In this document: positions 2,845-38,408 of the stretch, in pieces | How the letters are laid out: the number at the start of each line of letters is the position of its first letter | How positions within the stretch are numbered: the stretch's first letter is position 1 | Assembly: GCA_021849905.1 (NCBI GenBank) | Contig: JAJZSG010000001.1 | Coordinates: forward strand, 1-38,408 | Reading direction: 5' to 3' | DNA from: Pseudomonadota bacterium | GTDB taxonomy: Bacteria; Pseudomonadota; Gammaproteobacteria; Legionellales; Legionellaceae | DNA: 38,408 nt | Position numbers and translations under genes: made by a program | Notes under the pieces: model-generated | Told to the model about the DNA's origin: nothing | Database searches by the model: none | What the model saw: only the letters and a program-made list of their open reading frames with translations

Positions 2845-5800
2845 TTAACCTATTTCTAAATTTAGTCGCTGTAATGTTTTTGTTTGTTCAATAGGTGGTG
2901 TTTTAATAGGTTGATTATCCAGTTTGATGTCTCTTGTTATGCGCTCCATCGATACTGATATTTGAGTGTTTGTCATGGATATTTTACCACCATTTTCTTT
3001 CAGACTTTCAGGCTTGAATGACTTATTTAAAATATTAATTATACCTGAGACACCTTCACTTTTTACTACATCATTAAAATCGCCATTTTTATTTGGTATG
3101 GCGATTTCGACTTCCTTGCCATGAAGCTTTAGTCGTTTAATTGTTTCATTTAATATCTTGTCATCATGTAACGTCTTACCATCATTATCGAGACAAAGCA
3201 CGACTTTTTCCGTTAACAGATTGATATCGATAGATGTCATGTTTTGCTTTCCAAGAACCGTAATAACCCGCTCATTTTGAACCGCATCCCTAACGCTTAA
3301 TCCAGTTTCAATGCCTTCGGTTATATAGGTTACAGCATCTTTTGTTATGCCCTCGCTAACGATGACACCGGTTCCACCATTTGCTCCATACGTTTTCTTA
3401 TCAATATTAATATTTGCTTTATCAAATGTAGTATTATCAATATAAATGGCTTGAACCGACTGAACCACATTATCTTTATCACGCGCGATACACAGCAATG
3501 CGGGTCGATTTTTTATAGTTTCACTCTTGTCAGTAAATACACTTGGATGAAAACGGATGTTGTGTCCTGATAGGTTAGTAATACCCCGCGTTTCTTTAAG
3601 ATAAATTTCAGCTAAAGTGCCATGAATGGGTAATGATTCTTTTGATAAAAGTCGTGCATAAATTCTCGCTTTGCTGGGTTCGTTCTCATTTTTTTTTGTT
3701 GACTTAACCATGGTTTTTATGGGTGAATGAACTGTTTCCTTTAAATCATCCCCTGTTATTTTTGCCGCATATTCAAGGCTTGATTTAAAATCAAGGTTCA
3801 GTGATGATTGAATTAGATGTAATAAATTGCCTTTCTCCCCCGTTTCAAAATTAAACCATGTTCCTCGTTTATCACCCTGCAAAGAGATGCTTAAGCTACC
3901 CTTTGAACCATACCGCATTTCTTTTTTTGATGTGAGTCTCGCATTCGGTGTTCCCAGTAAATGTTGTACGACATATTCAGCATTTAATGATAAATTATGA
4001 ACAACTTCTTTTGCATCATAACGAGGTTTCTGATCGACATTTTTTGTTACCGCGAGCGTTTTTTCAGCTTGTTTTTCCGTCTCAAAAGACGGTTTATTTT
4101 TTTGTGCCGAGGGGATTATGCCAAGCTCCTCTAGTGCTGATGTTTTATTCGGTGTAAAGCCCAGTTGATGCTTTAATTTATTATAATCATCCGTGTAAAT
4201 CATGGCATGAACCGAGCCGCGCGAGACTGTAATGTAAAAACTTCTAAAATGGTTGGTTTTTTTGTTACCGGTGTTAGCAACACCAATGACAAAAGGTGAT
4301 GAACTTCCTTGAATGGAATAACTGGTTGAGGTGTAGCTGTAATCCCAGTGAGTATCTTTAAATTCATTTTTATGAAGCGTTTGGAGGTTGCCTGATGCGT
4401 CCTTCACCGAGAAGGTATCGTTAGAAACCTCGGTTACGATAAGTTTATCATTTGCAAAACGCGCATTTGCTTTGTCAGACTTTTTAAAATGGATTTTTTC
4501 ACCAACAGATAGCCTCCCTGTCGCCCCCTTAAATAGCTCTATTTTCCAATCTTGATTTTCTTTTTCTGGCAAGAAAATAGACTTTTCGCCCTGCACGTGT
4601 TGAAGTTCGACGACTCGTGACACCTCGTCAATCCCTACCACCTTATAGTATTGATTGTTTTTTTTAAGAAAATAGGTGTCTGGCTTTTTTAATATTTCAG
4701 CAAAGGTTTCTGCCTGGTAAAGCTCTGCGGTGGTGTAATTGGTGCTCAATAACCGCATGAAAGGCTTACTTTCACGGCCTATTGCCGCTTTTTCAATTAA
4801 CCCTTTTCGAATGAGTTGGTTGGCTATTTCGCGGTCTTTGTTTTCATGAATAACCACAATCGTGTTTTCGCGACACTCTGCCGTTCTGGATAGGTAGTCC
4901 TTGACCGCCATGGTTAGTGGCGTTTCATCTTTAACGACATCAACGACTGTATCTACATTTGTCCAAAGAGCTCCCTCGGACGTTGCAATCGGCTTGTTAT
5001 TTTTATGCTCGGCTTCTGAGTCTCCTGCCACAACAACCGACGTTTTGAGGCTATCAAGTACGGGATGTGAGCCTTCTCGCTCAATCGGCTTCAATGGTAA
5101 TTGGCTTAATTGGGTGAGCGCTTTATTCGTATCGCCTTGAATCAACGTTTCAACCGCTTTTTTATATTGTTGTACTTGTTGACGAACCAAATTACTCATC
5201 ACCGCTGTCTGAATGCTTCCTTCTTGCAGTAAAATAGCGGATGGTTTGCCGCTTTCTATCGCCTGGTGTTGGCTAACGTCTCCAAGCAGCGTGCATCGGC
5301 TATTGGCTGCATCTATGAAGCTTACGAGCCTTGCTGCGTCACGATTCGAAACCATCGATGACTCATCCAACAAAACGAGGGATTGACTGGATAACGTCGG
5401 ATTGTCTTCTTGTTCAATTAAAAAACTTTTAAGCGTTTGAGCCGTAATTCCTAATGCACGCATTTCTTTTACAGCTTGGTGAGTGGGGGCTATGGCGATG
5501 ATATCAAGCTGCGTATTGCCAAGCTCATTAGCGGTTTGAATGACCTCAATGACTGATTTCGTCATGGTCGTTTTACCAGTTCCGGCAAAGCCTTGGATCA
5601 TAGTAAAGCGATCACTGGTTGTAGCGATTAAGAGACTTGCCTCTTTTTGCCCTTCTGTAAGTCTCTGCGTGCTCAGTTTTTCCTCTGCACTTTTTAAATC
5701 AAGTATTGGCGTAACTCGGTTTTTACCCGATCTAACCGTCGATAAGATTTGCTCTTCAAATGACTTGGCCTCAATGGTCATAAGCTTACCGTCATCACTA

Positions 5801-8700
5801 CTTAAGAGTCGGCCATCTTGAAGAGAGCGGTTTATCTTTACAGAAAGCTCATCCACATTGGCCTCACCGATTGCTTTGTTCATGGCAACCGTTAACAAAT
5901 CATTTTTAGAGAATACTGTTTCGCGTTCAGACAAATGTGCGATCGCAAATTCCAACGCTTTTTCACTGGCTAAAATATCGGGCTTATCTTTGGTGAGCGT
6001 TGCAATGGCTTTCTCTAAACTTCGCAATAATTCATTTGTCGTTTGGTTATCAATAACCTTGATACCATTTGAAACGCTTGAAGCGTCGATCACGATGGAA
6101 ATAGCCGATGGCTTCACTGATAGCCTTGAGGCATGACGACGAGCCTTTTCAACATCATCGGTAATAATCTCTATGGATTGGCGTGATGTTTCCGTACTTA
6201 ATGCCATGATATTTTTATTTAAGGCATATGACGGCATGGTTAGGATGGTTTTATCAACCGTTTTGTAATCATGCGCGTGTAGGTTTTTAGCATAGGAATA
6301 GGTCAGTGGGAGATGGTTTGTATTCAATAAGTGAATCTCTTTTTGACCTGATTTTAATTTGAGGCCGTAGCGTGTAAAAGCAGTAACTTCATAAGCAGTT
6401 CCGGCTTTTACGCCATAAGGCTTCATATCACTCGTTGTAACCAATTGCTCACCAATGGAAACTGGCAACAGACGCTCTTCATAAACGTGCGACTGTTGAG
6501 TGATGCTTTTGACAGGAAGTAGGGTTTGCCTACCCCCTTCTTCACAGACGACTAGGGAACCTTTTTTTTCATCAATCGAGATAATTTTGAATTGTTGAGT
6601 TTTATGGGGTGATTTCTGGTGCAACACCCACCCGGGTTGATAGCTTTTAGCCGTTTTTTTCTCAATTGCCGTCAAGGAGATAGGCAATAACGTTTTAAGC
6701 TCTTTCTCTATTGTAGATAACGCACCGGCCTCTTTTAATTGATGTCGAATACGCTGATTTACCTCCCAGCTTTCAGCCTTTGAAATGGTTAATACGGCGG
6801 TGTTTTTACGTTCGACATCCGTTAATTTTGTATATTCTGAAGCCACCTTAAGCAGGCGAGCCGTTTTATCATGTGCCTCATGAAGCTGCATATTTGGCGC
6901 ATTTTTAGGCTTGTCAAACGCTTGATAGGTTAATACGGCGGCCTTATCCAAAAGACTTGGAATATCGGATTTCAACCCAGTGAGTCCTTCTGATTTTTCA
7001 AGTAGAATGACTTTGGCGCGACTCTTTGACGCAATCGATAATAATTGACTTAGCTCGTCGGGCGCACATCGCCCTACATCATCTACAATAATGAGTTCCT
7101 GCTCTTTTCTGGATTTAAAAAAGGGTAATCGGTGCGAGTCTTTGTGCTCATGATTAAAGCCTGCTATTGTTTGGGCAAGCTCACTTTTGTGAAGGGCGCT
7201 TAACCATTGCCAAATAGTTTCTGGTTTTTTGGTGGTTGCTTCATTAACCGATTTAGCAAGCATGCGAGAGGGCGTTAATACTCGAATGGTTTTGGAGTCA
7301 GAAGCATTATCAATGAGGGCAAGCAGGACTTCTTTTGAGGCAATGCTTTGTTGTTGAATTCGAATAATGCTCTGTTTCTCCTCCAAAACGCGTGCCACCG
7401 TATTCTGAATAGACTCTGGGACGTGTTTTGAACAGGTGTTCTTATCGTCTAGCTTCATCCCTTTTTTCTGTGGTGCAACCGTGCTTAATTGTTCAATCAG
7501 GTGTTTCTCTTTGGCGATTAATCCGCTGGTCGTTAAACGGCTCTCTTTATTGTCTAAGGCAATTAAATGCCGCGTTTTAATTTCATGATTGATGTCTTGG
7601 ATGAGCGTGTCATAGCCTACCTCGCCTTGCGAAAAATAAAGGCTTGCTTGAAGTATGTCTTGATATGAAAAACTTAATTTCCGCTCTTCCAGATGGGTTA
7701 TGGCATTGAGAACAACATCGCATCGTTCGTTTGCCGCCCTGTCTTTGCTGATGCTTTTAGAGGCCAGCGTTATTTGTTTTAACTCATTCAAATAGGTCGA
7801 TGGCTCTACACCTAATGCCTGACTCTCGGCAGTCCATTTCGCGCGCAACACATCAGGATTGGTTTCTTTTTTATATTCACGCGTGTCTTTCGCGGCTTTA
7901 TCATACGCTTTTAATGAATTGGAGTGCATGGTTTCTGCCCTCTCTTCAATGTCAGTTCGGCGCTTTGAAAACGTTATTAATAATTCCGGGTTAACATGTT
8001 TGATTTCAAACAGTCCATGAGGGTCTCCCGTTTGCTCGATTTCAAGTCCTTTGGATTTGAGACTCAAAGCAATTTCTGAGCGATAAACCAATCCTAAAAA
8101 AATTTGATTGGCCATGATCCACTCCATCGTGCCATGATTTTTTTTCATATCTGAGGCGAGTGAACGCCATTGTCCATCAAGCCGCTCAGTTAAATTCATC
8201 ATGAGCGCATGGGTATGAAGGAATGGATCTTGGTCACGTGAGGTATCATGCAGGATAGTAGCGAAGGCAAGGTTCATGGTTTTTTCATATTCTACCTCAC
8301 CCGACAACCCCATTTTACGTGCTTCTGCGGCCTCCTTTTCGATAATCTGCAATACTTTTTGAACTGCCCTTTGGTGCATATCAATAAAGTCTTTCTCACC
8401 CGAAACGAGCGCCAAATACGATACTGATTTTGGTGCACAAAAAGTTAAGTCGTAGCCTCCGCGGTGTTTGATTTCGCCATTGGCAGATCGAAGGCCAATA
8501 ATCTCGCCAGTCGGTAACACACCGCTTAAAATCATTTCGAGTTGCTCAGGACTCACTCGTTCACCTAATTCAAGCTTTAATGCACTTTGTCCTTGCCAGG
8601 CAGCTATGAGCTCTCCCGTGAAATAATAGTTATCTTTTGAAAAATAATAACGTGCTGCATCACTAGCTTGACGGATTGGTTTTACTCGTAGACTTAACAT
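2845..8700 (-). CDS. traI: TraI relaxase-helicase (MOB-F) with additional C-terminal primase-like/Toprim domain
   Basis: 1951 aa. N-terminal YY motifs and the histidine triad HDTSRDQDPFLHTHALMMN are present. There is a RecD-like helicase region with Walker A GFAGTGKTT. The C-terminus has RYGSKGSLSISLQGDKRGTWFNFETGEKGNLLHLI, then Toprim motifs EGIETGLS and LDNDGK. An AAGGAG SD lies 7 nt before the ATG. Confidence 0.95.
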   Translation of the reverse strand: MLSLRVKPIRQASDAARYYFSKDNYYFTGELIAAWQGQSALKLELGERVSPEQLEMILSGVLPTGEIIGLRSANGEIKHRGGYDLTFCAPKSVSYLALVSGEKDFIDMHQRAVQKVLQIIEKEAAEARKMGLSGEVEYEKTMNLAFATILHDTSRDQDPFLHTHALMMNLTERLDGQWRSLASDMKKNHGTMEWIMANQIFLGLVYRSEIALSLKSKGLEIEQTGDPHGLFEIKHVNPELLITFSKRRTDIEERAETMHSNSLKAYDKAAKDTREYKKETNPDVLRAKWTAESQALGVEPSTYLNELKQITLASKSISKDRAANERCDVVLNAITHLEERKLSFSYQDILQASLYFSQGEVGYDTLIQDINHEIKTRHLIALDNKESRLTTSGLIAKEKHLIEQLSTVAPQKKGMKLDDKNTCSKHVPESIQNTVARVLEEKQSIIRIQQQSIASKEVLLALIDNASDSKTIRVLTPSRMLAKSVNEATTKKPETIWQWLSALHKSELAQTIAGFNHEHKDSHRLPFFKSRKEQELIIVDDVGRCAPDELSQLLSIASKSRAKVILLEKSEGLTGLKSDIPSLLDKAAVLTYQAFDKPKNAPNMQLHEAHDKTARLLKVASEYTKLTDVERKNTAVLTISKAESWEVNQRIRHQLKEAGALSTIEKELKTLLPISLTAIEKKTAKSYQPGWVLHQKSPHKTQQFKIISIDEKKGSLVVCEEGGRQTLLPVKSITQQSHVYEERLLPVSIGEQLVTTSDMKPYGVKAGTAYEVTAFTRYGLKLKSGQKEIHLLNTNHLPLTYSYAKNLHAHDYKTVDKTILTMPSYALNKNIMALSTETSRQSIEIITDDVEKARRHASRLSVKPSAISIVIDASSVSNGIKVIDNQTTNELLRSLEKAIATLTKDKPDILASEKALEFAIAHLSERETVFSKNDLLTVAMNKAIGEANVDELSVKINRSLQDGRLLSSDDGKLMTIEAKSFEEQILSTVRSGKNRVTPILDLKSAEEKLSTQRLTEGQKEASLLIATTSDRFTMIQGFAGTGKTTMTKSVIEVIQTANELGNTQLDIIAIAPTHQAVKEMRALGITAQTLKSFLIEQEDNPTLSSQSLVLLDESSMVSNRDAARLVSFIDAANSRCTLLGDVSQHQAIESGKPSAILLQEGSIQTAVMSNLVRQQVQQYKKAVETLIQGDTNKALTQLSQLPLKPIEREGSHPVLDSLKTSVVVAGDSEAEHKNNKPIATSEGALWTNVDTVVDVVKDETPLTMAVKDYLSRTAECRENTIVVIHENKDREIANQLIRKGLIEKAAIGRESKPFMRLLSTNYTTAELYQAETFAEILKKPDTYFLKKNNQYYKVVGIDEVSRVVELQHVQGEKSIFLPEKENQDWKIELFKGATGRLSVGEKIHFKKSDKANARFANDKLIVTEVSNDTFSVKDASGNLQTLHKNEFKDTHWDYSYTSTSYSIQGSSSPFVIGVANTGNKKTNHFRSFYITVSRGSVHAMIYTDDYNKLKHQLGFTPNKTSALEELGIIPSAQKNKPSFETEKQAEKTLAVTKNVDQKPRYDAKEVVHNLSLNAEYVVQHLLGTPNARLTSKKEMRYGSKGSLSISLQGDKRGTWFNFETGEKGNLLHLIQSSLNLDFKSSLEYAAKITGDDLKETVHSPIKTMVKSTKKNENEPSKARIYARLLSKESLPIHGTLAEIYLKETRGITNLSGHNIRFHPSVFTDKSETIKNRPALLCIARDKDNVVQSVQAIYIDNTTFDKANINIDKKTYGANGGTGVIVSEGITKDAVTYITEGIETGLSVRDAVQNERVITVLGKQNMTSIDINLLTEKVVLCLDNDGKTLHDDKILNETIKRLKLHGKEVEIAIPNKNGDFNDVVKSEGVSGIINILNKSFKPESLKENGGKISMTNTQISVSMERITRDIKLDNQPIKTPPIEQTKTLQRLNLEIG

Positions 8701-24070: not shown

Positions 24071-24346
24071 CTATTTCATGGGGCGGGGTGGTACCCAAAC
24101 TTTTGAGCTCAAATGGTTTGTGCTCTCATAACGGTTAAGCCTACCAATGCTTCTTTGGTGTCTGCTTGAGTGACCATGACGGCTATCACCGTCGGCGTAA
24201 CGCGTCATCGCATCAACTTGCTCGATGGTCATGCAGCTATCACTTGCTGTTGCATGACAACTAAACGCTGAATTCATTGGCGAGCAGGCGCTCATCAAAA
24301 GACTGGTTGTGCTGATTGCTATAAATGCAATATTGTTTAATCTCAT
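24071..24346 (-). CDS. traV: TraV lipoprotein (short form)
   Basis: Lipobox LLMSAC. FSCHATASDSCMTIEQVD matches F TraV FECNATASDTCMTMEQAN (recalled). Confidence 0.8.
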   Translation of the reverse strand: MRLNNIAFIAISTTSLLMSACSPMNSAFSCHATASDSCMTIEQVDAMTRYADGDSRHGHSSRHQRSIGRLNRYESTNHLSSKVWVPPRPMK

Positions 24347-25704
24347 GGCTGTACTCCTGTTGAAGCAAAGGATTGGTTGGAAGCACTATCAATTTGATTT
24401 AAAACTTCTGGCGGTACAGTAAAGTTTGGTGAATCCGCGGGATTGTCCGGCGCGCCTTGCTCATTCATTTCGCTTCTCAAAGGCCGCATCGGACGTGTGC
24501 TTTGATATTTTTCTTCTGAATGACTGTCTTCTGCGGGTTCTAGGTAAAATCCATCTTTAAAGACAATGGTGACCACGTTGCCAGACCCGACCTGTATCAC
24601 AGGGTGGTACTGCTCCGCACGTTTCACGTAATATTGCGATAACACATCAGCAGCCTTTGAAGCGCCGCCATAGGCGGCATAAGGGCCAATATTAGATTGT
24701 GGTACAACCGAGGCTGCCCCAAACGAACTAATACTTTGTACCGATTGTGCGTATTGCGCAGCACTTGCAATCCCAGAGAGCGCACCACTAATTCCAGCCC
24801 ACTGCATGATTTTGTTATCGCGCATCAGCGGTACGCCCTTCACGCCAACCTTGCCGTTGAAAAACACCCATCCCGTGACTTCTTTATCAATAATTGGCTC
24901 GCCAGGATGTGCGCAAGAAATCTTGTAAAGCGTTGCAAAGGCCCGTTCACTAGAAATGTCACCATAAGCATTACCACTTACACGACAGCCTCGAAGGCGT
25001 GAGCGCTGGCCATTAGGTAGCGTACCGTCTTCTAAGAACTTAAATAACATCACTCCGTTGTTTCTACTCTGGCCGTTCACCGATGCATCAGCATCAGCAC
25101 CGCCTAGAATCACTGCTCGCACCGACGTGTTCGAGGGTACATAACGATTGGGGTTGAGGCGTGTTTGCGGCTTTTTGTGATGCGCTTTTCGAAAGGACAC
25201 CGTATGAATACGGGCAGGACGTGACACCATGCGTGATAAGCCATTTGCGGCTTTATTGCCTCCGTTATGCCAGAGACCGGCTTGAGTGCCATTCAATGAT
25301 GCTTGTGAACCGTTTGTGAACTGACGTTGTGCATCAGTCACGGGTGATGGTGTGTTCTTTATCTGCGCCGTTTCTTGGCGTTTCATCGCCATTTCACGTG
25401 CTTCTTTTTGATGAACTTCATTCATGTCTTTAATTGATTGCGACAATTGACTCAATTGCGTTTTTAATGACTCTAGCTCACTTTGTTGGGCAGTCATCGC
25501 GCTTACCGCATTGGCGTCGGTAAAGGACTCATCAATAATTCCGGTTAAATCGGTCTTTTTATCAACGGCACTGTGCTTTTTAGGCTTGGCGTCCGCAAGA
25601 AGTGCCACAATCGTCATGCTTAAGACCAATAGACCACCGCCAACCAAACTCATCATGCGCATTTGGCGTGATTTAATTAGGCCATTCAAGCGTAGATTAG
25701 CCAT
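24343..25704 (-). CDS. traB: TraB (VirB10-like)
   Basis: 453 aa with an N-terminal TM, a coiled-coil/Pro-rich linker and a C-terminal beta domain. Overlaps traK and traV. Confidence 0.9.
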   Translation of the reverse strand: MANLRLNGLIKSRQMRMMSLVGGGLLVLSMTIVALLADAKPKKHSAVDKKTDLTGIIDESFTDANAVSAMTAQQSELESLKTQLSQLSQSIKDMNEVHQKEAREMAMKRQETAQIKNTPSPVTDAQRQFTNGSQASLNGTQAGLWHNGGNKAANGLSRMVSRPARIHTVSFRKAHHKKPQTRLNPNRYVPSNTSVRAVILGGADADASVNGQSRNNGVMLFKFLEDGTLPNGQRSRLRGCRVSGNAYGDISSERAFATLYKISCAHPGEPIIDKEVTGWVFFNGKVGVKGVPLMRDNKIMQWAGISGALSGIASAAQYAQSVQSISSFGAASVVPQSNIGPYAAYGGASKAADVLSQYYVKRAEQYHPVIQVGSGNVVTIVFKDGFYLEPAEDSHSEEKYQSTRPMRPLRSEMNEQGAPDNPADSPNFTVPPEVLNQIDSASNQSFASTGVQP

Positions 25705-30265: not shown

Positions 30266-30463
30266 TTAGTGAATTCGGTAATTATTGTTCTGCATGGCTA
30301 ACTCACATCTCAAAAACTGGCACGCTAATGTCGCCTCAAAAGACGCTTCAAATAACGAGTCAATTTCTGTGGCTTGCCACGCTTGCGTCAACTGATGTGC
30401 GCATTGGCTTAGAACGTGGAGTAACTCCTCTTGATTGAACGTTTTAAGATTAGCAATAGCCAT
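30266..30463 (-). CDS. Small 65-aa protein, paralog of 29164..29364 (lvrB-like position upstream of the csrA-like gene)
   Basis: Paralogy as described above. It overlaps the upstream gene's stop by 14 nt and sits 20 nt upstream of the csrA-like ATG. Confidence 0.55.
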   Translation of the reverse strand: MAIANLKTFNQEELLHVLSQCAHQLTQAWQATEIDSLFEASFEATLACQFLRCELAMQNNNYRIH

Positions 30464-31127
30464 GAAGCAGACTCCCTAATGATATGTTGTTGTTTTTGAT
30501 GCGACTGACCGCACGTTTAGTTTTCTGTCTGTGATAATAAGACACCTCTTCATCAGCCACGTCAGGTATCGTGAACCCCTCAGAAATACGCACGCATACT
30601 TTTGCATAAGCTTTTGAGAACGTCTGAAACGCCTCGTGCGTATACGCTGAATTAACCACATCAACACCGACGTACTTCACCGTGAATTTCACCGCTTTAT
30701 GACTCCACTTGGGCGATGAATAAAGCGCGTTTTGGCGCGCCTCAGCAAACGCTTTATGAACGCTCGGCAAAGCACCTGTTTTGCCCTTTAAACACAAATG
30801 TCTAAACTGCGTCACATTAGGAGGCCAGGTTTCAAAACGCTCATCACGTAACATGGCATGCAGACCACATCTCACCTCATCTTCGGTTAAATCATTCAGT
30901 GCGTACTGCCAAACACGCGCATTTTTTACATCCGTTGCGTTGGAAAAACGCGCGCCATAAATATCAGTTAACTGGACCCAAATCGTCGACACTAAGCATT
31001 CTGACTGTAGCGGGTTGATGTGCTGCTCCTCGCCGGTTGAATCGTCGTGACGTCTGATTGAACTCAAGGCCACCTCCTTGGGTAAACATCGCGATGACAC
31101 GCTCTGAAGGGGTTTGACGTTGCTCAT
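30450..31127 (-). CDS. Phage lambda replication protein P-like protein
   Basis: Start set at MSNVKPLQ (AAGGAG SD 8 nt upstream). VWQYALNDLTEDEVRCGLHAMLRDERFETWPPNVTQFRHLCLKGKTGALPSVHKAF...WSHKAVKF parallels lambda P RRQWVLAFRENGITTMEQVNAGMRVARRQNRPFLPSPGQFVAWCREEASVTAGLPNVSEL...WKSNAHYW (recalled). Confidence 0.6.
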   Translation of the reverse strand: MSNVKPLQSVSSRCLPKEVALSSIRRHDDSTGEEQHINPLQSECLVSTIWVQLTDIYGARFSNATDVKNARVWQYALNDLTEDEVRCGLHAMLRDERFETWPPNVTQFRHLCLKGKTGALPSVHKAFAEARQNALYSSPKWSHKAVKFTVKYVGVDVVNSAYTHEAFQTFSKAYAKVCVRISEGFTIPDVADEEVSYYHRQKTKRAVSRIKNNNISLGSLLHGYC

Positions 31128-31974
31128 TTGAATCGCTCCTTGAATAGGTATGCTTGGTTTTAGGTTGTTCTGCTTTGGCCTTCTGCGCTTTCTCTCGTTC
31201 GAGGACAGATTGTGCCCACATGATGAAAACATAGTCATAGTTACGCCAAATGCTCCCGTTTGCTTGATTAAACAGAATGAATTTTCTTAGCTCATCAGGA
31301 TCGGTTGCCTTGGAAAAGCCCAAGCTTAACGCTTTGTCGATCGCAAACTGGGAGGGATAGAAATCGTCGCTGATTGGTTTTTTTATTCCCACTAACTCTT
31401 CCGACACAGAGTTGTTATTATTGGGTTGAAAATTGGGTTTAATCGCGTGTGCGTTGATGGGGGCAACCAAATCAGCTGTGTACGGTTCTGTGTATTCTTC
31501 TGTGTTAAATTCATCCTCAAAAATGGGCTTTCCCTCAATTTTTGTAGGGGTTGTAGCTGTGTAAAATACCTTGTTTTTATCTGTGTACACTTCTGTGGAT
31601 TCAAAATGTGATGCATAGATCGCTGGTAATGTAGGGAGCTGTATTTTAAGCGCTTGACCATCACTGATAATTTTAAAATGATCGCCGCATTGTGATTGAA
31701 TGGTTCGCAAATAACTTCGGATCGTTTGCTTTTGAGGGGTGCCGGAGTCTTTACGGCCTGGAGCTGCATTGACGGTTAATGTAGAAGCTAGATCACTGTA
31801 GGTGATGTTTTCGACGATTCCCGATTCAGGGTTCGCCCTAGTAATCAGTAGATTAACTAACCTTGAAATAGCATGAGGCAATCCCTCAAAACAGGCCTCG
31901 ATCGCTGTTCTTGCGTCGTTATATTTTGCAACTTCTGCTAAATAATCATATAAAAATATAGAACTAGACATCAT
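30964..31974 (-). CDS. Replication-initiator-like protein (N-terminal winged-helix, C-terminal DnaT/phage-O-like segment); lvrA-like position
   Basis: Start moved to MMSSSIFLYDYL (GAGG SD). The N-terminal half is wHTH-like (ITYSDLASTLTV...TIRSYLRTIQ). The C-terminus FYPSQFAIDKALSLGF...ELRKFILFNQANGSIWRNYDYVFIMW resembles the DnaT-like module found in phage O-type initiators. The last 54 codons overlap the P-like gene. Confidence 0.5.
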   Translation of the reverse strand: MMSSSIFLYDYLAEVAKYNDARTAIEACFEGLPHAISRLVNLLITRANPESGIVENITYSDLASTLTVNAAPGRKDSGTPQKQTIRSYLRTIQSQCGDHFKIISDGQALKIQLPTLPAIYASHFESTEVYTDKNKVFYTATTPTKIEGKPIFEDEFNTEEYTEPYTADLVAPINAHAIKPNFQPNNNNSVSEELVGIKKPISDDFYPSQFAIDKALSLGFSKATDPDELRKFILFNQANGSIWRNYDYVFIMWAQSVLEREKAQKAKAEQPKTKHTYSRSDSNEQRQTPSERVIAMFTQGGGLEFNQTSRRFNRRGAAHQPATVRMLSVDDLGPVN

Positions 31975-32200
31975 TACCTCTATTTTTTTCTTATAGAGGC
32001 AAAACTGCCGTGTTTTCTCACAACATTGTATGTTATCATAAACACAGGCAATCATTGCCTTAGACAATAGCTGGAAGTTTCTCGTCGCCAAACAGTGGCT
32101 TCCAGCGGGCTAATAAATCGTAAGTACTTTTTTTAAAAATCCATTAAAACTTAGCCATTAAGCTACACGGTATAATCGTGATTGATTTTTGGTCTAAAGT

Positions 32201-32242
32201 TACACTTTAAAGTGTAGAGATAGTTTAACACTCTAAAGTGTA
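32201..32242. promoter_or_regulatory. Two operator-like boxes: perfect palindrome TACACTTTAAAGTGTA (32201-32216) and variant AACACTCTAAAGTGTA (32227-32242)
   Basis: Read directly from the sequence. The boxes are 26 bp apart, centre to centre, between the divergent repressor and O-like genes. Both are followed by GA. Confidence 0.6.
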
Positions 32243-32250
32243 GATCTCAA
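32222..32250 (-). promoter_or_regulatory. Candidate leftward promoter (TTGAGA - 17 bp - TAAACT) whose spacer is the second operator box
   Basis: The -35 is the reverse complement of 32245-32250 and the -10 is the reverse complement of 32222-32227. It faces the O-like/P-like/csrA-like genes. Confidence 0.35.
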
Positions 32251-32320
32251 TAGCTGCTTACTTTAATTGTTACTGCTTATTAATTCCTATAAGCTCTAAC
32301 TTAAAAATGATATTAAATAG

Positions 32321-32956
32321 ATGAATAAACTCAGCGCGAACCTCAAGAATTTATTATTTAACGCCAAGATAAGCGAAAATGAGCTCGCACGTAAAACGGG
32401 CGTTGCCCAACAGGTTATCAATAGAATTTTGTCAGGAGAAAATAAAAACCCAAAAATTGCGACCTTAAGTCCATTAGCTAACTATTTTATGGTTTCAATC
32501 AGCCAATTAATTGGTGATGAAAATTTTGATGTCAAACCAAAACTAAATACTGTCCATTTAGGCTGGCAAGAAATTCCGATAATTGATTGGGATTTTCTCA
32601 GTAAAAAATCACTAAACGAGCTTTTATCACAAAGCAATGAAAAAATATTAGTCGATATTGGTTTTTCTAAAAATATATTCGCCTTAAGAATGAATGATGA
32701 TTCGATGGAGCCCAAGTTGTCTAATGGGGCCATTTTAGTATTTGACCCCAATAAAAAGCCGTCTAATGGGGATTTCTCCTTACTTGAGCTACCAAACAAT
32801 GAAATAGAAGTCAGGCAAATATTAATCAAAGGCAAAAAAATTTATAAAAAATGTTTAAGTCCATCGCACAAAGACTATAAATCAACACAAATATCAGAAG
32901 ACACTAAGTATCTTGGCTTGCTCATTCAATCAAGAACAGATCATATTATCCGTTGA
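32321..32956 (+). CDS. CI/LexA-like repressor (XRE HTH + S24 peptidase-like C-terminal domain); lvrR-like position
   Basis: 211 aa. The N-terminal HTH is ISENELARKTGVAQQVINRILSG. The C-terminal domain has the DDSMEP serine motif and a GDF...EVRQIL segment colinear with lambda CI GDSM...GDF...FKKL. Confidence 0.85.
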   Translation: MNKLSANLKNLLFNAKISENELARKTGVAQQVINRILSGENKNPKIATLSPLANYFMVSISQLIGDENFDVKPKLNTVHLGWQEIPIIDWDFLSKKSLNELLSQSNEKILVDIGFSKNIFALRMNDDSMEPKLSNGAILVFDPNKKPSNGDFSLLELPNNEIEVRQILIKGKKIYKKCLSPSHKDYKSTQISEDTKYLGLLIQSRTDHIIR

Positions 32957-33689
32957 GTTTAAGTGAGACAATTAAATTATCCTTAATGCATACAACAGAA
33001 GGATGGTGACAGGCGCCACGTTCTTTTCTTTTTAATAAAAACGCTAAAAAACTTGCTGGCCAGACAGCAATTAATCCATATAACAGCTTGAATATCAAAG
33101 CGCTAGCCATAAGATAAATAATTTGTTTTGTCGGCATCATCCCGAAAAACGTAATAATACCAGAAATAAATGTTGCTGCTCCTTCGCTTATACTGGAAGC
33201 TAAGAGGCTTCTATACCAAAAAGCTCTTCCTTTCATTTTATATTTCCACCTTGTAAAGAGATGGATGTTTAAAAACGAGCTAATCAGAAAACCAACTACT
33301 CCAGCATTTGTAAATCGTAAAACATGACCTAATACCTGATTGTAAGCACCGGTATTATCCCAATAATCAGGGGCAGGAAATAAATTTACGGCTGTTAACA
33401 ACAACGCGAATATGTAACCACAGCATATTGATTCTAAAATCAATTTCTTTGCAAGATCTTTTCCATAACTTTCCGCATAAACATTTGCTAAAAAAAACGA
33501 AAATGTGTAAATCAACGTGGAACCAGGTTCTGGAACTGGGCCAATAATCACAATTCTATATGCAACCACTGTTGCTGCCAATAAAAAAGTAATATATACC
33601 ATGGCCACTAATCGTATGTATCTATAGTTTTCTGTAATTTGTGGATCCAAATTATTGTTTGATATTACATTGTTCATTGGCATATTCAT
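32946..33689 (-). CDS. VUT-family (YhhQ/DUF165-like, queuosine-precursor transporter family) membrane protein
   Basis: 247 aa with about 6 TM segments. The FSFFLANVYAESYGKDLAKK segment resembles the conserved xDxxxExYG motif region of this family. Confidence 0.55.
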   Translation of the reverse strand: MNMPMNNVISNNNLDPQITENYRYIRLVAMVYITFLLAATVVAYRIVIIGPVPEPGSTLIYTFSFFLANVYAESYGKDLAKKLILESICCGYIFALLLTAVNLFPAPDYWDNTGAYNQVLGHVLRFTNAGVVGFLISSFLNIHLFTRWKYKMKGRAFWYRSLLASSISEGAATFISGIITFFGMMPTKQIIYLMASALIFKLLYGLIAVWPASFLAFLLKRKERGACHHPSVVCIKDNLIVSLKLNG

Positions 33690-34204
33690 TCTTCATCATT
33701 ATCCCGAAAATCATCTATTGCTTGCTCTTGGATAGCAGTGCTTATAATAATTTTTAGGTCATCGTGTCCGAACTTGGTTAACAATGCGGAATCACAATAC
33801 AGCTCGTGTGCTAACCACCTCTCTTCGCCATCCTCTTGAAACTTCTTGATAATGAAAACTGTTTTGCCTTTTAAAAACTCTTGCCTTTTAATACGGCACT
33901 TTGGTGCGTTTTCACTTTTTTTATTGCTTTGTTGAATAGCATAAAAAGTTATTGCTCTCACATCAAACGAGGAAAATTCTTCAAGCATTACATCATCTAC
34001 AACCAGCTCTTTAGGGGAATAGGGAACGACTTGTTTTTTAATTCCATTAACTAACACGAGTAATGTCACTTCATTCGTTTCTTTATTGGTTTCTATATTG
34101 ACGATTTTAAATCGACAACTTTTAGATTCTTTACGAAATTCATTGTAACTTATTGCCAAATCAGCAAACCATTTTGTTAATATTTTTGATCTATCCCAAT
34201 CCAT
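33686..34204 (-). CDS. Hypothetical 172-aa cytoplasmic protein
   Basis: ATGA overlap with the downstream transporter gene, and 12 nt after the asparaginase stop. No recognisable domain. Confidence 0.6.
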   Translation of the reverse strand: MDWDRSKILTKWFADLAISYNEFRKESKSCRFKIVNIETNKETNEVTLLVLVNGIKKQVVPYSPKELVVDDVMLEEFSSFDVRAITFYAIQQSNKKSENAPKCRIKRQEFLKGKTVFIIKKFQEDGEERWLAHELYCDSALLTKFGHDDLKIIISTAIQEQAIDDFRDNDEE

Positions 34205-34216
34205 AAAGTAAGAACC

Positions 34217-35230
34217 TTAATATTGATTGAAAATTCTTTGAATTTCCATCTTGTTTCGCGTTTTTGATAATGCAACAGCTAATAAAATTCTCGCTTTCTG
34301 AGGATTCAATGAACCACCTGCGATAATACCATACTCATCATCGATTTTTTCGTCTGTGTTAATAAATCCTTGTCCTGTTCTTGAGCACCTGACAACATAA
34401 ACGCCTTTGCAACTTGCCTTGTTTAATGCTTCTGTAACTTCGTTGGGTTGATACCCTTTTCCCATTCCTGCACTAATAATCCCTTGTGCATTATTTTCTA
34501 TAGCCGCTTTAACAAAAGTAGAATCCATGCCAATATGACCATAAATTATAAATATCTTCGCAAAATTACTCATGTCATGTATACTAAATTCGCTGCGATA
34601 GGTATGCCTGTTTTGAACCATACTGTGAATGCGTATTTTGTTTGATTGAATAAAACCAATTACTCCAGACCCATTTATTGAAAAATTTCCCATTACTGAG
34701 GGATTTAGCTTGGATGCATCACGAGCGCTGACGATGCCGTCATTAAATGTGAGTACAACACCAATTTTTGATTCATTTCTATTGCTTGCAAGTAATATTG
34801 CATTATATAAATTTCTATCCCCATCATAACCTAGAGCATTAAATGGCCTAAATGATCCTGTAAAAACTATAGGCTTTTTTGTATTAATCACCAAACTTAA
34901 GAAATAAGCTGTTTCTTCTATGCTGTTAGTTCCATGCGTAATAACAATTCCATCTACGTCATCACTATTTACCAATTCGTTAACTTTTTTTGCTAATAAA
35001 AACAAATCATCATGACTAATTTCGTGGCTGATTTGATGTAAAATTTGATCGCAAACGATGGTTAGCTTTTCTGGATCAAAAGGAAGAGCCGCAATAAGCT
35101 CATTTATATTAATCGATGAGCGGTTATAAAACTCTTCTGTATGTTGGTTTGCAACAGAAGCAATTGTACCACCTAGTGCAAGGACATATATTCGTTGTTT
35201 TCTATCTAGATTAAACATGAGTTTATTCAC
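34217..35230 (-). CDS. L-asparaginase family protein
   Basis: VLALGGTIAS (the TGGTIA-type threonine motif) and GIVITHGTNSIEETAYFL (the HGTDT motif, here HGTNS). Confidence 0.8.
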   Translation of the reverse strand: MNKLMFNLDRKQRIYVLALGGTIASVANQHTEEFYNRSSININELIAALPFDPEKLTIVCDQILHQISHEISHDDLFLLAKKVNELVNSDDVDGIVITHGTNSIEETAYFLSLVINTKKPIVFTGSFRPFNALGYDGDRNLYNAILLASNRNESKIGVVLTFNDGIVSARDASKLNPSVMGNFSINGSGVIGFIQSNKIRIHSMVQNRHTYRSEFSIHDMSNFAKIFIIYGHIGMDSTFVKAAIENNAQGIISAGMGKGYQPNEVTEALNKASCKGVYVVRCSRTGQGFINTDEKIDDEYGIIAGGSLNPQKARILLAVALSKTRNKMEIQRIFNQY

Positions 35231-35262
35231 CTGATTTATACTTTATGGTGGGCATAAATAAA

Positions 35263-36780
35263 TCATTTTTTTTTGACCATCAAAAAAATACCAATATTTT
35301 TTATTTCATCTCTTATATCAGAGTGAATACTATATTTAACCCACCCACCCCGCCCTACTTTTTGATCTGACCTAATAATAAGTCCAGCGCTTGCTAATCT
35401 GAATAACGTATTTTTTAATGATTTCTTATTTACACCGGATAGCATCGAAATTTCATTTAACGTAAGTTCTTTTGTTGTAACTAAATCATTCAGTTGTATG
35501 TTTTTATACAGCGCTAGAATTATGTCTCTTTGATTTCCTATCAATTGGGAAAATTTTATCACAGGTAGAGAAAGATCTTTATTTTTGTTTGGCTCCGAAG
35601 AGCTAATATCTAAGAACCTATTTTGAAACGTGTGTGAACCATTGGTGAATTCCGGTTGTACCAAACCGTGAACCTGCTCTACTGGATCAAAAGACAAATG
35701 TGACTCGTGACTTGTGAACCGTTTGTGAACCGTTTGCAAACCATTGCTGAGCTCCGGCTGTGCCAAATCATATAGCTTTTCTACTGGATCAGAAGACGTA
35801 TCTGACTCATGACTTGTGAACCGCTTGTGAACCGTTTGTGAACCATTGTTGAGCTCCGGCTGTGCCAAATCATATAGCTTTTCTACCGGATCAGAAGACG
35901 TATCTGACCCATGATTTGTGAACCGCTTGTGAACCGTTTGCAAACCATTGCTGAGCTCCGGCTGTGCCAAATCTTGAAGCCTGTTCACTGGGTCAGAAGA
36001 GGTATCTGACTCATGACTTGTGAATCGCTTGTGAACCGTTTGTGAACCATTGTTGAGCTCCGGCTGTGCCAAATCATATAGCTTTTCTACTGGATCAGAA
36101 GACGTATCTAACTCATGACTTGTGAACCGATTGTGAACCGTTTGTGAACCATTATTGAGTTCCGGCTGTGCCAAATCATATAGTTTTTCTACTGGTTCTG
36201 AAGACGTATCTGACTCATGACTTGTGAACCGATTGTGAACCGTTTGTGAACCATTAATGAACTCCGGCTGTGCCAAATCATATAGCTTTTCTACTGGTTC
36301 TGAAGACGTATCTGACTCATGATCTGTGAACCGTTTGTGAGCCGTTTGTGAACCATTATTGAGTTCCGGCTGTGCCAAATCATATAGCTTTTCTACTGGT
36401 TCTGAAGACGTATCTGACTCATGACTTGTGAACCGATTGTGAACCGATTGTGAACCATTAATGAACTCCGGCTGTGCCAAATCATATAGCTTTTCTACTG
36501 GTTCTGAAGACGTATCTGAGTCATGATTTGTGAACCGATTGTGGACCGTTTTCAAACCATTACTGAGCTCCGGCTGTGCCAAATCTTGAAGCATTTTCAC
36601 TGGATCAGAAGACGTATCTGACTCATGATTTGTGAACCGTTTGTGAACCGTTTGTGAACCGTTATCATTTCCAATTATATTATCAAAAAAATGAGATTCG
36701 CGAAAAACTCGATCTTGATTCTTTTTTGGTAATTGGCGCTCTTTTGTGTATAAATCAAAAGCTCCTTTTTTAATAGCCAT
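35263..36780 (-). CDS. ParB-position repeat protein: short basic N-terminus, about 10.3 tandem 34-aa acidic repeats, C-terminal winged-helix domain
   Basis: Its ATG overlaps the parA stop (TAATG). The repeat unit is NGSQTVH(K/N)RFT(S/N)HESDTSS(E/D)PVEKLYDLAQPEL. The C-terminus LTLNEISMLSGVNKKSLKNTLFRLASAGLIIRSDQKVGRGGWVKYSI is MarR/ArsR-like wHTH. No ATG exists that could express the wHTH part alone. Confidence 0.7.
   Translation of the reverse strand: MAIKKGAFDLYTKERQLPKKNQDRVFRESHFFDNIIGNDNGSQTVHKRFTNHESDTSSDPVKMLQDLAQPELSNGLKTVHNRFTNHDSDTSSEPVEKLYDLAQPEFINGSQSVHNRFTSHESDTSSEPVEKLYDLAQPELNNGSQTAHKRFTDHESDTSSEPVEKLYDLAQPEFINGSQTVHNRFTSHESDTSSEPVEKLYDLAQPELNNGSQTVHNRFTSHELDTSSDPVEKLYDLAQPELNNGSQTVHKRFTSHESDTSSDPVNRLQDLAQPELSNGLQTVHKRFTNHGSDTSSDPVEKLYDLAQPELNNGSQTVHKRFTSHESDTSSDPVEKLYDLAQPELSNGLQTVHKRFTSHESHLSFDPVEQVHGLVQPEFTNGSHTFQNRFLDISSSEPNKNKDLSLPVIKFSQLIGNQRDIILALYKNIQLNDLVTTKELTLNEISMLSGVNKKSLKNTLFRLASAGLIIRSDQKVGRGGWVKYSIHSDIRDEIKNIGIFLMVKKK
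35611..36660 (+). repeat. Tandem 102-bp repeats (about 10.3 units), each carrying up to three TGTGAACC boxes at 11-bp spacing
   Basis: 25 perfect TGTGAACC copies start at 35633, 35713, 35724, 35815, 35826, 35837, 35917, 35928, 36030, 36041, 36121, 36132, 36143, 36223, 36234, 36245, 36325, 36347, 36427, 36438, 36449, 36529, 36631, 36642 and 36653. In-register one- or two-mismatch variants also occur (TGCAAACC, TGTGAATC, TGTGAGCC, TGTGGACC). Confidence 0.95.
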
Positions 36781-37839: not shown

Positions 37840-37878
37840 TTGTATGTTTTTATTTTTTAATAACACAAAAACATACAA
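37840..37878. promoter_or_regulatory. Inverted repeat TTGTATGTTTTT - 15 nt - AAAAACATACAA immediately upstream of parA
   Basis: Perfect 12-bp arms, 11-49 nt upstream of the parA ATG. This is the position of the autoregulatory operator in type Ia par operons. Confidence 0.5.
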
Positions 37879-37968: not shown

Positions 37969-38194
37969 TGTGAACCATTATTAACACGAGCAGATGAACC
38001 AATTGTGAACCATTAACGCTAATAATTTGTGAACCGATTGTGAACCATTGATTAATAGTGCAAACCTAATAAGAGCTGTATTGATTGGTAGTTTATCAAC
38101 AAACACATATAAAGCATTTGTGAACCATTAAAAAAATAATTTGTGAACCACTTGTGAACCATTAAAAAAATAATTTGTGAACCATTTGTGAACC
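37969..38194 (+). repeat. Iteron/centromere-like array: 9 perfect TGTGAACC boxes (mostly tTGTGAACCATT), three pairs at 11-bp spacing, separated by A-rich tracts
   Basis: Boxes start at 37969, 38004, 38028, 38039, 38119, 38142, 38153, 38176 and 38187. All are in the same orientation as the intragenic boxes. The 34-bp unit cattaaaaaaataatttgtgaaccaYttgtgaac is repeated. Confidence 0.85.
38093..38101 (+). promoter_or_regulatory. DnaA-box-like 9-mer TTATCAACA (one mismatch to TTATCCACA)
   Basis: Lies between the two clusters of TGTGAACC boxes. A single 9-mer with a mismatch is weak evidence. Confidence 0.2.
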
Positions 38195-38334
38195 ATTAAT
38201 ATTAAATAATCACCTATGAATCAATGGGTTAAAACAATATTTGGAGTTGACTGCATAAATTATTCAATGTAGTTTTAATTTATAGTCACTGCTAGATGAT
38301 AAAAAAATTGGAATACTAAAAAAAAATGATTCGC

Positions 38335-38360
38335 TATGAAGGGTTTGCCGACCCTTCATA
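38335..38360. other. Perfect 10-bp stem hairpin (tatgaagggt-ttgccg-acccttcata)
   Basis: Read directly from the sequence. On the minus strand a run of 9 T begins 8 nt after the stem, so it may be a terminator for a gene entering from beyond the right edge. Confidence 0.3.
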
Positions 38361-38408
38361 ACCGATAAAGCAAATAACATGGAACAAAACTAAAGATAAA
38401 GATCGGAA

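Follow-up and report, generated by a model that had tools for sequence, protein, structure and literature searches.

The stretch of DNA analysed here (hereafter the window) comprises 38,408 nucleotides of contig JAJZSG010000001.1 from the Legionellaceae assembly GCA_021849905.1, and represents an F-type conjugative plasmid with genes for TraI, TraD, TraG, TraC, TraB, TraK, TraT and TraM. It carries a partition locus, in which parA, encoding a Walker-type ATPase, is followed by a gene for a 505-aa protein at the position of ParB, with a predicted winged helix at its C-terminus. A short direct repeat (the "box") recurs both in the non-coding DNA upstream of parA and in the coding sequence of the second gene (Table 1), and the nature and probable function of these two arrays are the subject of this work.

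Table 1. Features of the partition locus and a related site in the window
Feature	Position	Strand	Evidence or remarks
Gene for the 505-aa (predicted) winged-helix protein, ParB position	35263..36780	-	List of open reading frames; GAGG ribosome-binding site; homologues
Predicted C-terminal winged-helix DNA-binding domain, aa 405-505	35266..35568	-	AlphaFold2 (AF2) model, Foldseek, profile
Embedded box array	35614..36665	-	Ten 102-bp (34-aa) units and a degenerate 11th, three 11-bp units each
Conserved N-terminal peptide MAIKKGAFDLYTKERQLPKK...	36667..36780	-	Alignment of homologues
parA, 349-aa Walker-type partition ATPase with an N-terminal extension of ~75 aa	36780..37829	-	Pfam, PHROG, Walker A motif
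Imperfect palindrome between box array and parA start	37840..37878	.	Inverted repeat; equivalents in L019, L021
Non-coding array, 9 perfect boxes	37969..38194	-	Operon orientation; spacings 11, 23, 24, 35, 80 bp
Outlying pair of 11-bp units AGTTCACAAAC GGTTCACAAGC	25304..25322	-	Inside traB (TrbI-like) open reading frame 24343..25704

According to the k-mer scan that the original prediction had called for, run here on the window, the 8-mer TGTGAACC has 35 perfect matches, all on the + strand, compared to 1.24 expected (sd 1.23; maximum of 5 in 100 shuffles). Twenty-five of them (35633-36660) lie within the open reading frame (ORF) of the 505-aa protein, nine at 37969-38194, and one at 25304; the 34 copies counted previously in the gene and upstream of parA are thus all present, and the last copy brings the total for the window to 35. 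The boxes are co-oriented with the parA operon, and if one mismatch is allowed, their number in the gene rises from 25 to 29. The 8-bp box GGTTCACA sits within an 11-bp unit, GGTTCACAAAY. In the gene, Tandem Repeats Finder reports a 102-bp unit repeated 10.3 times with 88% match, and in its consensus the boxes have offsets of 3, 14 and 25, a spacing of 11 bp, and occupy phases 0, 2 and 1 of the ORF (GGT-TCA-CA, G-GTT-CAC-A, GG-TTC-ACA), exactly as the triplets in all three codon phases had been described. The coding strand reads AAT GGT TCA CAA ACG GTT CAC AAn CGG TTC ACA, corresponding to NGSQTVH(K/N)RFT, and the peptide encoded by the array is a Ser/Asp/Glu/Pro-rich linker. The in-gene copies must not be taken as 25 independent events, because they result from about ten tandem duplications of one three-box unit. 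The earlier argument from copy number, although based on correct counts, was therefore inflated, and the independent evidence has to be sought in the non-coding array and in homologous loci.

As megablast against PLSDB returned no match for either the partition region or 24 kb from the tra region, no deposited plasmid is close to the window, and relatives were sought through proteins. A database search yielded 25 homologues of the 505-aa protein (P0001-P0025), and a genome scan revealed 16 Legionella/Tatlockia loci, in 15 of which the frame is open. These 15 loci share an N-terminal peptide, MAIKKGAFxLYxQERxLP, and a C-terminal domain of ~100 aa, with between one and ten repeats in between and linkers of unrelated sequence; the frame shifts or stop codons that would have pointed to a spurious ORF are absent. 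The peptide is kept in all short forms from Legionellaceae and in three long forms coupled to ParA, P0016, P0017 and P0025 (the two forms are described below). In the window, the ribosome-binding site GAGG is located 7 nt 5' of the ATG, and the stop codon of parA overlaps this ATG (TAATG), which indicates translational coupling. Across the array only one of the six frames is open. Because of the coupling with parA, the single open frame, the existence of homologues and the conservation of both in-frame ends at 15 loci, we conclude that the 505-aa ORF is a real gene.

The AF2 model of the C-terminal domain (pLDDT 87.5) shows three helices followed by a beta-hairpin wing (H-H-H-strand-strand), in agreement with the winged helix suggested earlier for this region. 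A Foldseek search with this model lists matches to MarR-like winged helix-turn-helix (wHTH) proteins, none below E=1e-3, with AspA and TubR among them at non-significant values (E >= 3e-3). No match of the 505-aa protein to the ParB family (ParB/Srx N-terminal domain or ParB HTH) was found in Pfam, NCBIfam or PHROGs, and the modelled fold is a winged helix and not the ribbon-helix-helix of ParG, omega and ParR-like proteins. Likewise, there is no Pfam match to the RepA_N domain (PF06970), no Pfam or NCBIfam match to Rep_3, and neither a PHROG match to O-like or other initiators nor a C-terminal effector domain. With the RepA_N proteins it nonetheless shares the presence of sites inside its own gene, where they encode the linker, which is a functional resemblance only.

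Codon usage shows which level is conserved. In the 63 motif instances from the 15 loci, with codon use in the same operons as background, the boxes are encoded nearly invariantly by GGT for Gly (54/57; background 28%), TCA for Ser (57/57; 29%), GTT for Val (58/61; 49%), CAC for His (60/62; 27%), CGG for Arg (24/26; 4%), TTC for Phe (39/39; 21%) and ACA for Thr (29/32; 36%), with binomial P values per locus between 7e-4 and 7e-12. The variable residue of the motif (T/S/L/M/K/G) has an NNG codon in 56/63 instances, so that the first G of the second box is supplied regardless of the amino acid, and where the Arg is replaced, it is by Trp (TGG) or Gln (CAG), with GG or AG retained. On the other hand, codon positions that flank the box vary freely (AAC/AAT, AAA/AAG), and GSPSAH in the linkers of L004 and L005, which serves as an internal control, is encoded by GGA AGC ... 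CAT. When identical residues are compared between loci, the codon is shared in 91.1% of cases at box codons vs 44.8% within the winged-helix domain encoded by these genes, and among the repeat units of the window the box columns diverge by 4.2% vs 9.2% for the other columns (p=0.01). Because of the codon fixation, the base-keeping replacements, the excess of shared codons and the box columns diverging half as much, sequence comparison leads us to conclude that the conserved unit is the DNA motif and not the peptide. One could argue that selection acts instead on NGSQTVHKRFT as a ParA-stimulating or protein-interaction motif, of which the DNA motif would be a by-product; the peptide is indeed conserved across homologues and contains K/R residues, and a dual role is conceivable. 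We find this very improbable as the sole explanation, given that the synonymous sites are fixed on codons that are otherwise rare (above all CGG, TTC and CAC), that substitutions preserve bases instead of residues, that the same 11-bp units are present in non-coding DNA, and that the boxes of other lineages encode other peptides at the same ~11-bp spacing.

The same element recurs in non-coding DNA. The 11 loci for which upstream sequence is available contain 9-21 boxes (<=1 mismatch) in the region 110-630 bp upstream of parA, all of them in the orientation of the operon and with an extended unit, (A/T)A(A/T)Y-GGTTCACA-A(A/T)Y. Their spacings cluster at 11, 23-24, 35, 57, 68 and 78 bp, a period of 11.25 bp fits them best (R=0.84), and in most loci the promoter-proximal box is found near position -147 from the ATG of parA; no box occurs inside parA in any of the 15 loci. 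The claim that the DNA motif itself is conserved is thus borne out by the fixation of synonymous sites at 15 loci and by identical non-coding boxes at 11. We infer that the upstream array of the window is a putative centromere and operator. The total number of boxes per locus ranges from 16 to 38 (15 loci), and the numbers in the two arrays are anticorrelated (Spearman -0.67, p=0.006, n=15 loci, not phylogenetically corrected). The window has the fewest upstream boxes (9) among the cassettes with an upstream array and the most in-gene boxes (29), and at the same mismatch level L022 and L023 have 0 upstream and 17-21 in the gene. The fact that box numbers trade off in this way suggests that the two arrays are functionally interchangeable.

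The constant end of the upstream array at about -147 would be compatible with control of the parA promoter, and sites within the gene could block elongation; hence the boxes might be nothing but operators or roadblocks for autoregulation of the operon, with the true centromere elsewhere. This is improbable in our view: 16-38 phased sites far exceed regulatory need, L022 and L023 lack upstream boxes altogether, and no alternative centromere-like family of repeats was seen at the loci. Moreover, in type Ib partition systems, e.g. parH, the operator and the centromere are usually one and the same set of repeats.

Boxes are also found outside the partition locus. The only stray perfect copy in the window, at 25304, has a partner (<=1 mismatch) exactly 11 bp away, which makes a chance origin unlikely, and the pair may represent a secondary binding site; it lies 10 kb from the partition locus and is read in the frame of traB as RQFTNGSQ. 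On the Legionella pneumophila plasmid L019, a perfect pair 11 bp apart (10748 and 10759) is located on the reverse strand directly upstream of traT, far from the partition cassette. Sites of the CRP type (TGTGA-N6-TCACA) were considered, since the box contains TGTGA, and were ruled out because every box is a direct repeat and palindromic pairs never occur.

To which protein do the boxes belong? Divergently from parA lies one of two unrelated genes: in L009, L010, L012, L013, L016, L019 and L021 it encodes a protein of ~410-456 aa with an N-terminal wHTH, and in L002-L005 and L011 a protein of ~278 aa that resembles RepA of IncFII/L/M plasmids (NF040977, E=6e-8, below the cutoff). Because identical arrays adjoin these two unrelated rep-like genes, the boxes go with the cassette of parA and the winged-helix gene and not with rep. 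The winged-helix gene directly follows parA in 7/7 genomic contexts examined. The product of parA itself matches Pfam AAA_31 (2.7e-29) and ParA-like PHROGs (2e-36), contains a deviant Walker A motif (KGGVYKT), finds Soj/ParA among the sequences of the PDB, and gives partial NCBIfam matches, none of which reaches the cutoff, to RepA, ParA and SopA partition proteins.

Relatives of the 505-aa protein include long forms, in which the winged helix is central and followed by an extra all-helical domain. The long forms of L022 and L023 follow parA and carry 10 and 13 perfect GGTTCACA boxes, respectively, all of them in the gene. In Piscirickettsia salmonis the 210-aa short form adjacent to ParA1 has a different box, GGTAACAAA, arranged in the gene in pairs 11 bp apart and found 14 more times in a non-coding array apparently displaced by IS5, and the 478-aa long form adjacent to ParA2 has a third one, GGAAC(A/G)(A/T)(A/T), with 25 copies in the gene (four per 45-bp repeat, spaced by 10-12 bp, in several codon phases) and 4-7 more upstream of parA2. 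Two phage-like metagenomic members, L025 and L026, carry TAGCAACAAAG (at least 12 copies) and GGTAGCAAAGTG (11-13 copies), respectively, in the gene only and in all three phases. The ~11-bp spacing is common to all these box types, and judging from these comparisons the type of the box co-varies with the winged-helix protein; three further specificities, together with the indifference to the neighbouring rep type, thus add to the support for the motif as a DNA element. In plasmids L024 (NZ_CP038921.1), L027 and L028 of P. salmonis, the short- and long-form cassettes with their different box specificities stand back to back; copies of IS5 split the intergenic region, and the 14-box GGTAACAAA array has apparently moved by ~10 kb to the side of an HTH_36 gene. 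In one of these plasmids IS5 truncates parA2, and intact plasmids carry the full parA.

Since all boxes at the locus lie on the sense strand in the direction of the operon, one may ask whether the motif acts in RNA, or whether the long ORF is an artefact of a 102-bp unit that happens to be open over a non-coding centromere. We give hardly any weight to either version. The periodicity of 11.25 bp is a property of the DNA helix, the non-coding array of P. salmonis is located 10 kb away on the opposite strand, and the box pair of L019 is reversed, all of which speak against RNA; the conserved coupled start, the folded C-terminal domain, the in-frame variation of the repeats at 15 loci and the closure of 5/6 frames speak against an artefact. 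The peptide-only, ORF-artefact and RNA-motif readings are all contradicted by the data.

Having seen the selection on the boxes at the DNA level, a real gene, its linkage to parA and the covariation of box type with protein, we propose, on sequence grounds, that the locus is a type I partition cassette composed of parA and a winged-helix adaptor, with a centromere of phased 11-bp units present both upstream of parA and inside the adaptor gene; we regard this as probable, though by no means certain. As in known type I cassettes, a ParA gene with a deviant Walker A motif is directly followed, in the same operon, by the gene for what is modelled as a DNA-binding protein. The adaptor would be a centromere-binding protein (CBP) of the winged-helix and not of the ParB type, serving an F-type conjugative plasmid of Legionellaceae. 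Its C-terminal domain would bind both arrays, and the upstream one would probably double as an operator; autoregulation or a roadblock effect of the in-gene sites may follow. Because of the ~11.25-bp phasing of boxes in one orientation, bound proteins would be aligned on roughly one face of the helix. ParA would then move the complex of CBP and array, contacting it via the conserved N-terminal tail, which, to judge from the corresponding tails of ParB and ParG, is likely to be a ParA-contacting or ATPase-stimulating element. According to this scenario, the linker-coding region of the adaptor gene has taken in part of the centromere, and since the linker mostly tolerates the residues that the boxes encode, the array could expand and contract by in-frame tandem duplication.

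Several observations weigh against this proposal. The winged-helix fold is generic: the best E-value in Foldseek is 1e-3, and AspA and TubR appear only among many other MarR-like matches. The covariation of box and protein would look the same if the boxes were bound by ParA, which is inherited together with the CBP and has an N-terminal extension that could bind DNA, and the trade-off in box numbers was calculated without phylogenetic correction on loci that include close relatives. The window extends to 580 bp upstream of parA and thus covers the intergenic region in part. Where a partition complex sits on a gene that is itself transcribed and translated, disturbance by RNA polymerase is to be expected. 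Finally, no separate set of iterons was found between the rep-like gene and parA at the loci inspected, and the long forms exhibit weak PHROG matches to phage initiators over the region of the winged helix (phrog_678, 1e-4, and phrog_428, 2e-5; "replication initiation O-like" and "replication initiation protein"), while in L025 a dnaB helicase gene is found two genes downstream. Because of these matches and the nearby helicase gene, an initiator ancestry or role is possible.

The last points lead to the most serious alternative, namely that the boxes are replication iterons, forming an origin or a locus of copy-number control ("handcuffing", incA-like) bound by the 505-aa protein or by the neighbouring Rep, and that the gene is a truncated member of an initiator family. 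An origin within the gene of the initiator is a known design, as in pSK41 Rep (PMC5703833) and repC (PMC9040568), and in Legionella the upstream array does lie between the rep-like gene and parA. However, the protein in the window lacks both the C-terminal domain of the long forms and any match to initiators, the same arrays accompany two unrelated rep-like genes (the likeness of one of them to IncFII/L/M RepA being sub-threshold), and each member examined is the immediate downstream partner of parA. In addition, inspection of the sequence beside the in-gene array revealed neither an AT-rich unwinding element nor a cluster of DnaA boxes, and the C-terminal domain of the long forms shows no similarity of fold to known domains that recruit helicases or primases. 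We therefore consider the iteron interpretation unlikely.

Returning to the partition cassette, its adaptor belongs to a large family: the winged-helix profile retrieves 931 clusters (50% identity; E<=1e-3) among 1.84 billion representatives, distributed over Legionellales, Thiotrichales, phage-like contigs and metagenomes. Long forms make up most of these clusters, each having a short peptide repeat of its own, and no cluster is functionally named; look-ups of the clusters of ten distant members returned no functional name either. The C-terminal domain of the long forms is modelled with pLDDT 90.7 and has no match in the PDB by sequence or by fold, or in BFVD. A possible link between the long-form motif LRKGxxWxExxYxSPQE and the motif IRxKQWRTPKGFY of the ~410-aa rep-like protein from Legionella was rejected as not significant by BLASTP or hhalign. 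It is tempting to consider the entire family as ParA-partner winged-helix proteins, defined by lineage-specific in-frame 11-bp arrays in several phases, in which the in-gene array of the long forms is the sole copy of the sites and serves as centromere and origin at once. Such Rep-ParB hybrids would couple replication and segregation via one protein and one locus, an idea that we put forward as rather doubtful.

Several implications follow. As a natural example of dual coding the locus is unusually clear: one stretch of DNA is under constraint as protein and, at the same time, as up to ~30 phased predicted sites read in three frames, and the rules by which a disordered linker accommodates a constraint imposed at the level of DNA can be measured from it. 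The adaptor would represent a new type of CBP for Walker-type ParA systems, neither ParB nor ribbon-helix-helix, and its presumed expansion of repeats within the gene offers a simple route to altered centromere strength and incompatibility. Plasmids of L. pneumophila and of the fish pathogen P. salmonis carry the protein under no annotation other than "hypothetical protein", and annotation pipelines and repeat finders would call such arrays protein repeats, thereby overlooking the cis element.

With respect to the plasmid setting, the window is syntenic with pLD-TEX-KL of Fluoribacter dumoffii and with plasmids of L. pneumophila, on which the gene pair is annotated as "ParA family protein / hypothetical protein". 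The palindrome in front of parA could conceivably be an operator for the N-terminal domain of ParA; from a scan for promoters and terminators, the position of the parA promoter with respect to the boxes did not emerge. A second palindrome or hairpin, GTTATGAAG...CTTCATAAC, is conserved in the interval that separates the box array from the divergent rep-like gene (window 38333-38362, L019 3760-3793, L021 3706-3735). In the window it also scores as a terminator-like hairpin on the - strand, and it may serve as an operator of Rep or as an origin element. The cargo that separates par from tra (32000-35300) is composed of a type II asparaginase, a 172-aa ORF without family match, a VUT-family transporter and an S24/XRE repressor, with a G+C content of 33-35%, below the 43-48% of the tra region. 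Between traT and the repressor gene, an ORF with a domain similar to lambda replication protein P (PF06992, 1.8e-6; 30450-31238, - strand) overlaps a 375-aa ORF without family matches (30964-32091, - strand), and the pair may be a helicase-loader module or the product of a mis-called start. TraI (1951 aa, 2845-8700, - strand), a relaxase-helicase, has an extra C-terminal module of DUF7146 and Toprim_3 that is primase-like. Directly upstream of the TraM-like gene (2473-2841), two tandem copies of the 22-bp repeat AATCAACCCCTAATCCACACCC (2303-2346) are probably part of the oriT/TraM-binding region, and at the edge of the window a 348-aa ORF with a Schlafen/AlbA_2 domain (122-1168, - strand) is possibly a defence or regulatory gene.

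Among the known systems, parallels in the arrangement of sites are provided by centromeres built of short direct repeats. The iterons of R1 parC, like the units in the window, measure 11 bp. As to their make-up, parC consists of two sets of five iterons (PMC2241845), TP228 parH of an array of tetramer boxes (PMC3130281), and F sopC of 12 x 43-bp repeats (PMC3177203). In R1 and the type Ib systems the array lies upstream of the motor gene and doubles as an operator, as proposed here; however, the arrays are non-coding, their binders are ribbon-helix-helix (ParR, ParG) or ParB-family (SopB) proteins, and the R1 motor is the actin-like ParM. With respect to the protein, TubR (type III) and AspA (pNOB8) are small wHTH proteins as well, and coat centromeres of repeated or extended DNA, but their Foldseek matches are not significant, they work with the TubZ motor or with ParB-N and ParA, respectively, and their sites lie outside the gene.

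Sites inside the gene of the protein that binds them have precedents, of which lambda O, with four ~19-bp iterons of ori-lambda in its linker-coding part and an adjoining AT-rich region, is the classical one. The iterons there also occupy the part of the gene that encodes an inter-domain linker, and the long-form relatives of our protein match O-like families weakly; the protein in the window, on the other hand, has no C-terminal effector domain and no O-like match, and it is the downstream partner of parA. In the repABC replicons, oriV is inside repC, parS sites lie inside or near the operon, intragenic ones included, and the ATPase RepA, of the ParA type, carries an extension at its N-terminus (PMC9040568). 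The likeness is that the coding sequences of a maintenance operon hold the cis sites for replication and partition, and the ParA of the window has a partial NCBIfam match to RepA; the difference is that the parS sites there are single 16-bp palindromes bound by a true ParB (RepB), with no tandem in-frame array. The Streptomyces plasmid SCP2 has a single parS within parT, as shown by chromatin immunoprecipitation sequencing and with the use of synonymous recoding (PMC12260392). There, as predicted here, the centromere lies within the gene of its own non-canonical ParB-like binder, but it is one 18-bp inverted repeat, and ParT is a sliding clamp-like relative of ParB and not a protein with a repeat linker and a C-terminal winged helix.

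The plasmids pAD1 and pCF10 encode RepA_N initiators of the same kind as Rep of pSK41. The winged-helix domain of the latter binds four Rep boxes located centrally in its own gene, and the DNA of these boxes encodes a dispensable linker that varies between lineages (PMC5703833). This is analogous to the system described here, where binding of the winged-helix protein to repeated, linker-encoding boxes in its own gene is predicted. However, the four boxes of pSK41 form a replication origin, whereas the window contains ~29 boxes in 11-bp units read in three frames plus a non-coding array, and its protein has no RepA_N domain, is partnered with ParA and resides in the Gram-negative Legionellales and Thiotrichales.

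A literature search for the 8-mer in full texts, which returned only primer noise, and for partition of Legionella plasmids, centromeres and in-gene iterons revealed no publication on this system. The view that no described system has such an architecture thus holds for the design of the array, but has to be qualified by the precedents with one or a few sites, namely pSK41 Rep, repC and SCP2 parT. The novelty is in the design of the array and its conservation throughout the family, and not in the principle of sites within one's own gene. What is new is a long phased array of up to ~30 sites encoded in three frames, its non-coding duplicate with an apparent trade-off in the number of sites, a predicted adaptor that is neither ParB nor ribbon-helix-helix, and a design that is kept, while the sequence of the box changes, across a very large unannotated family.

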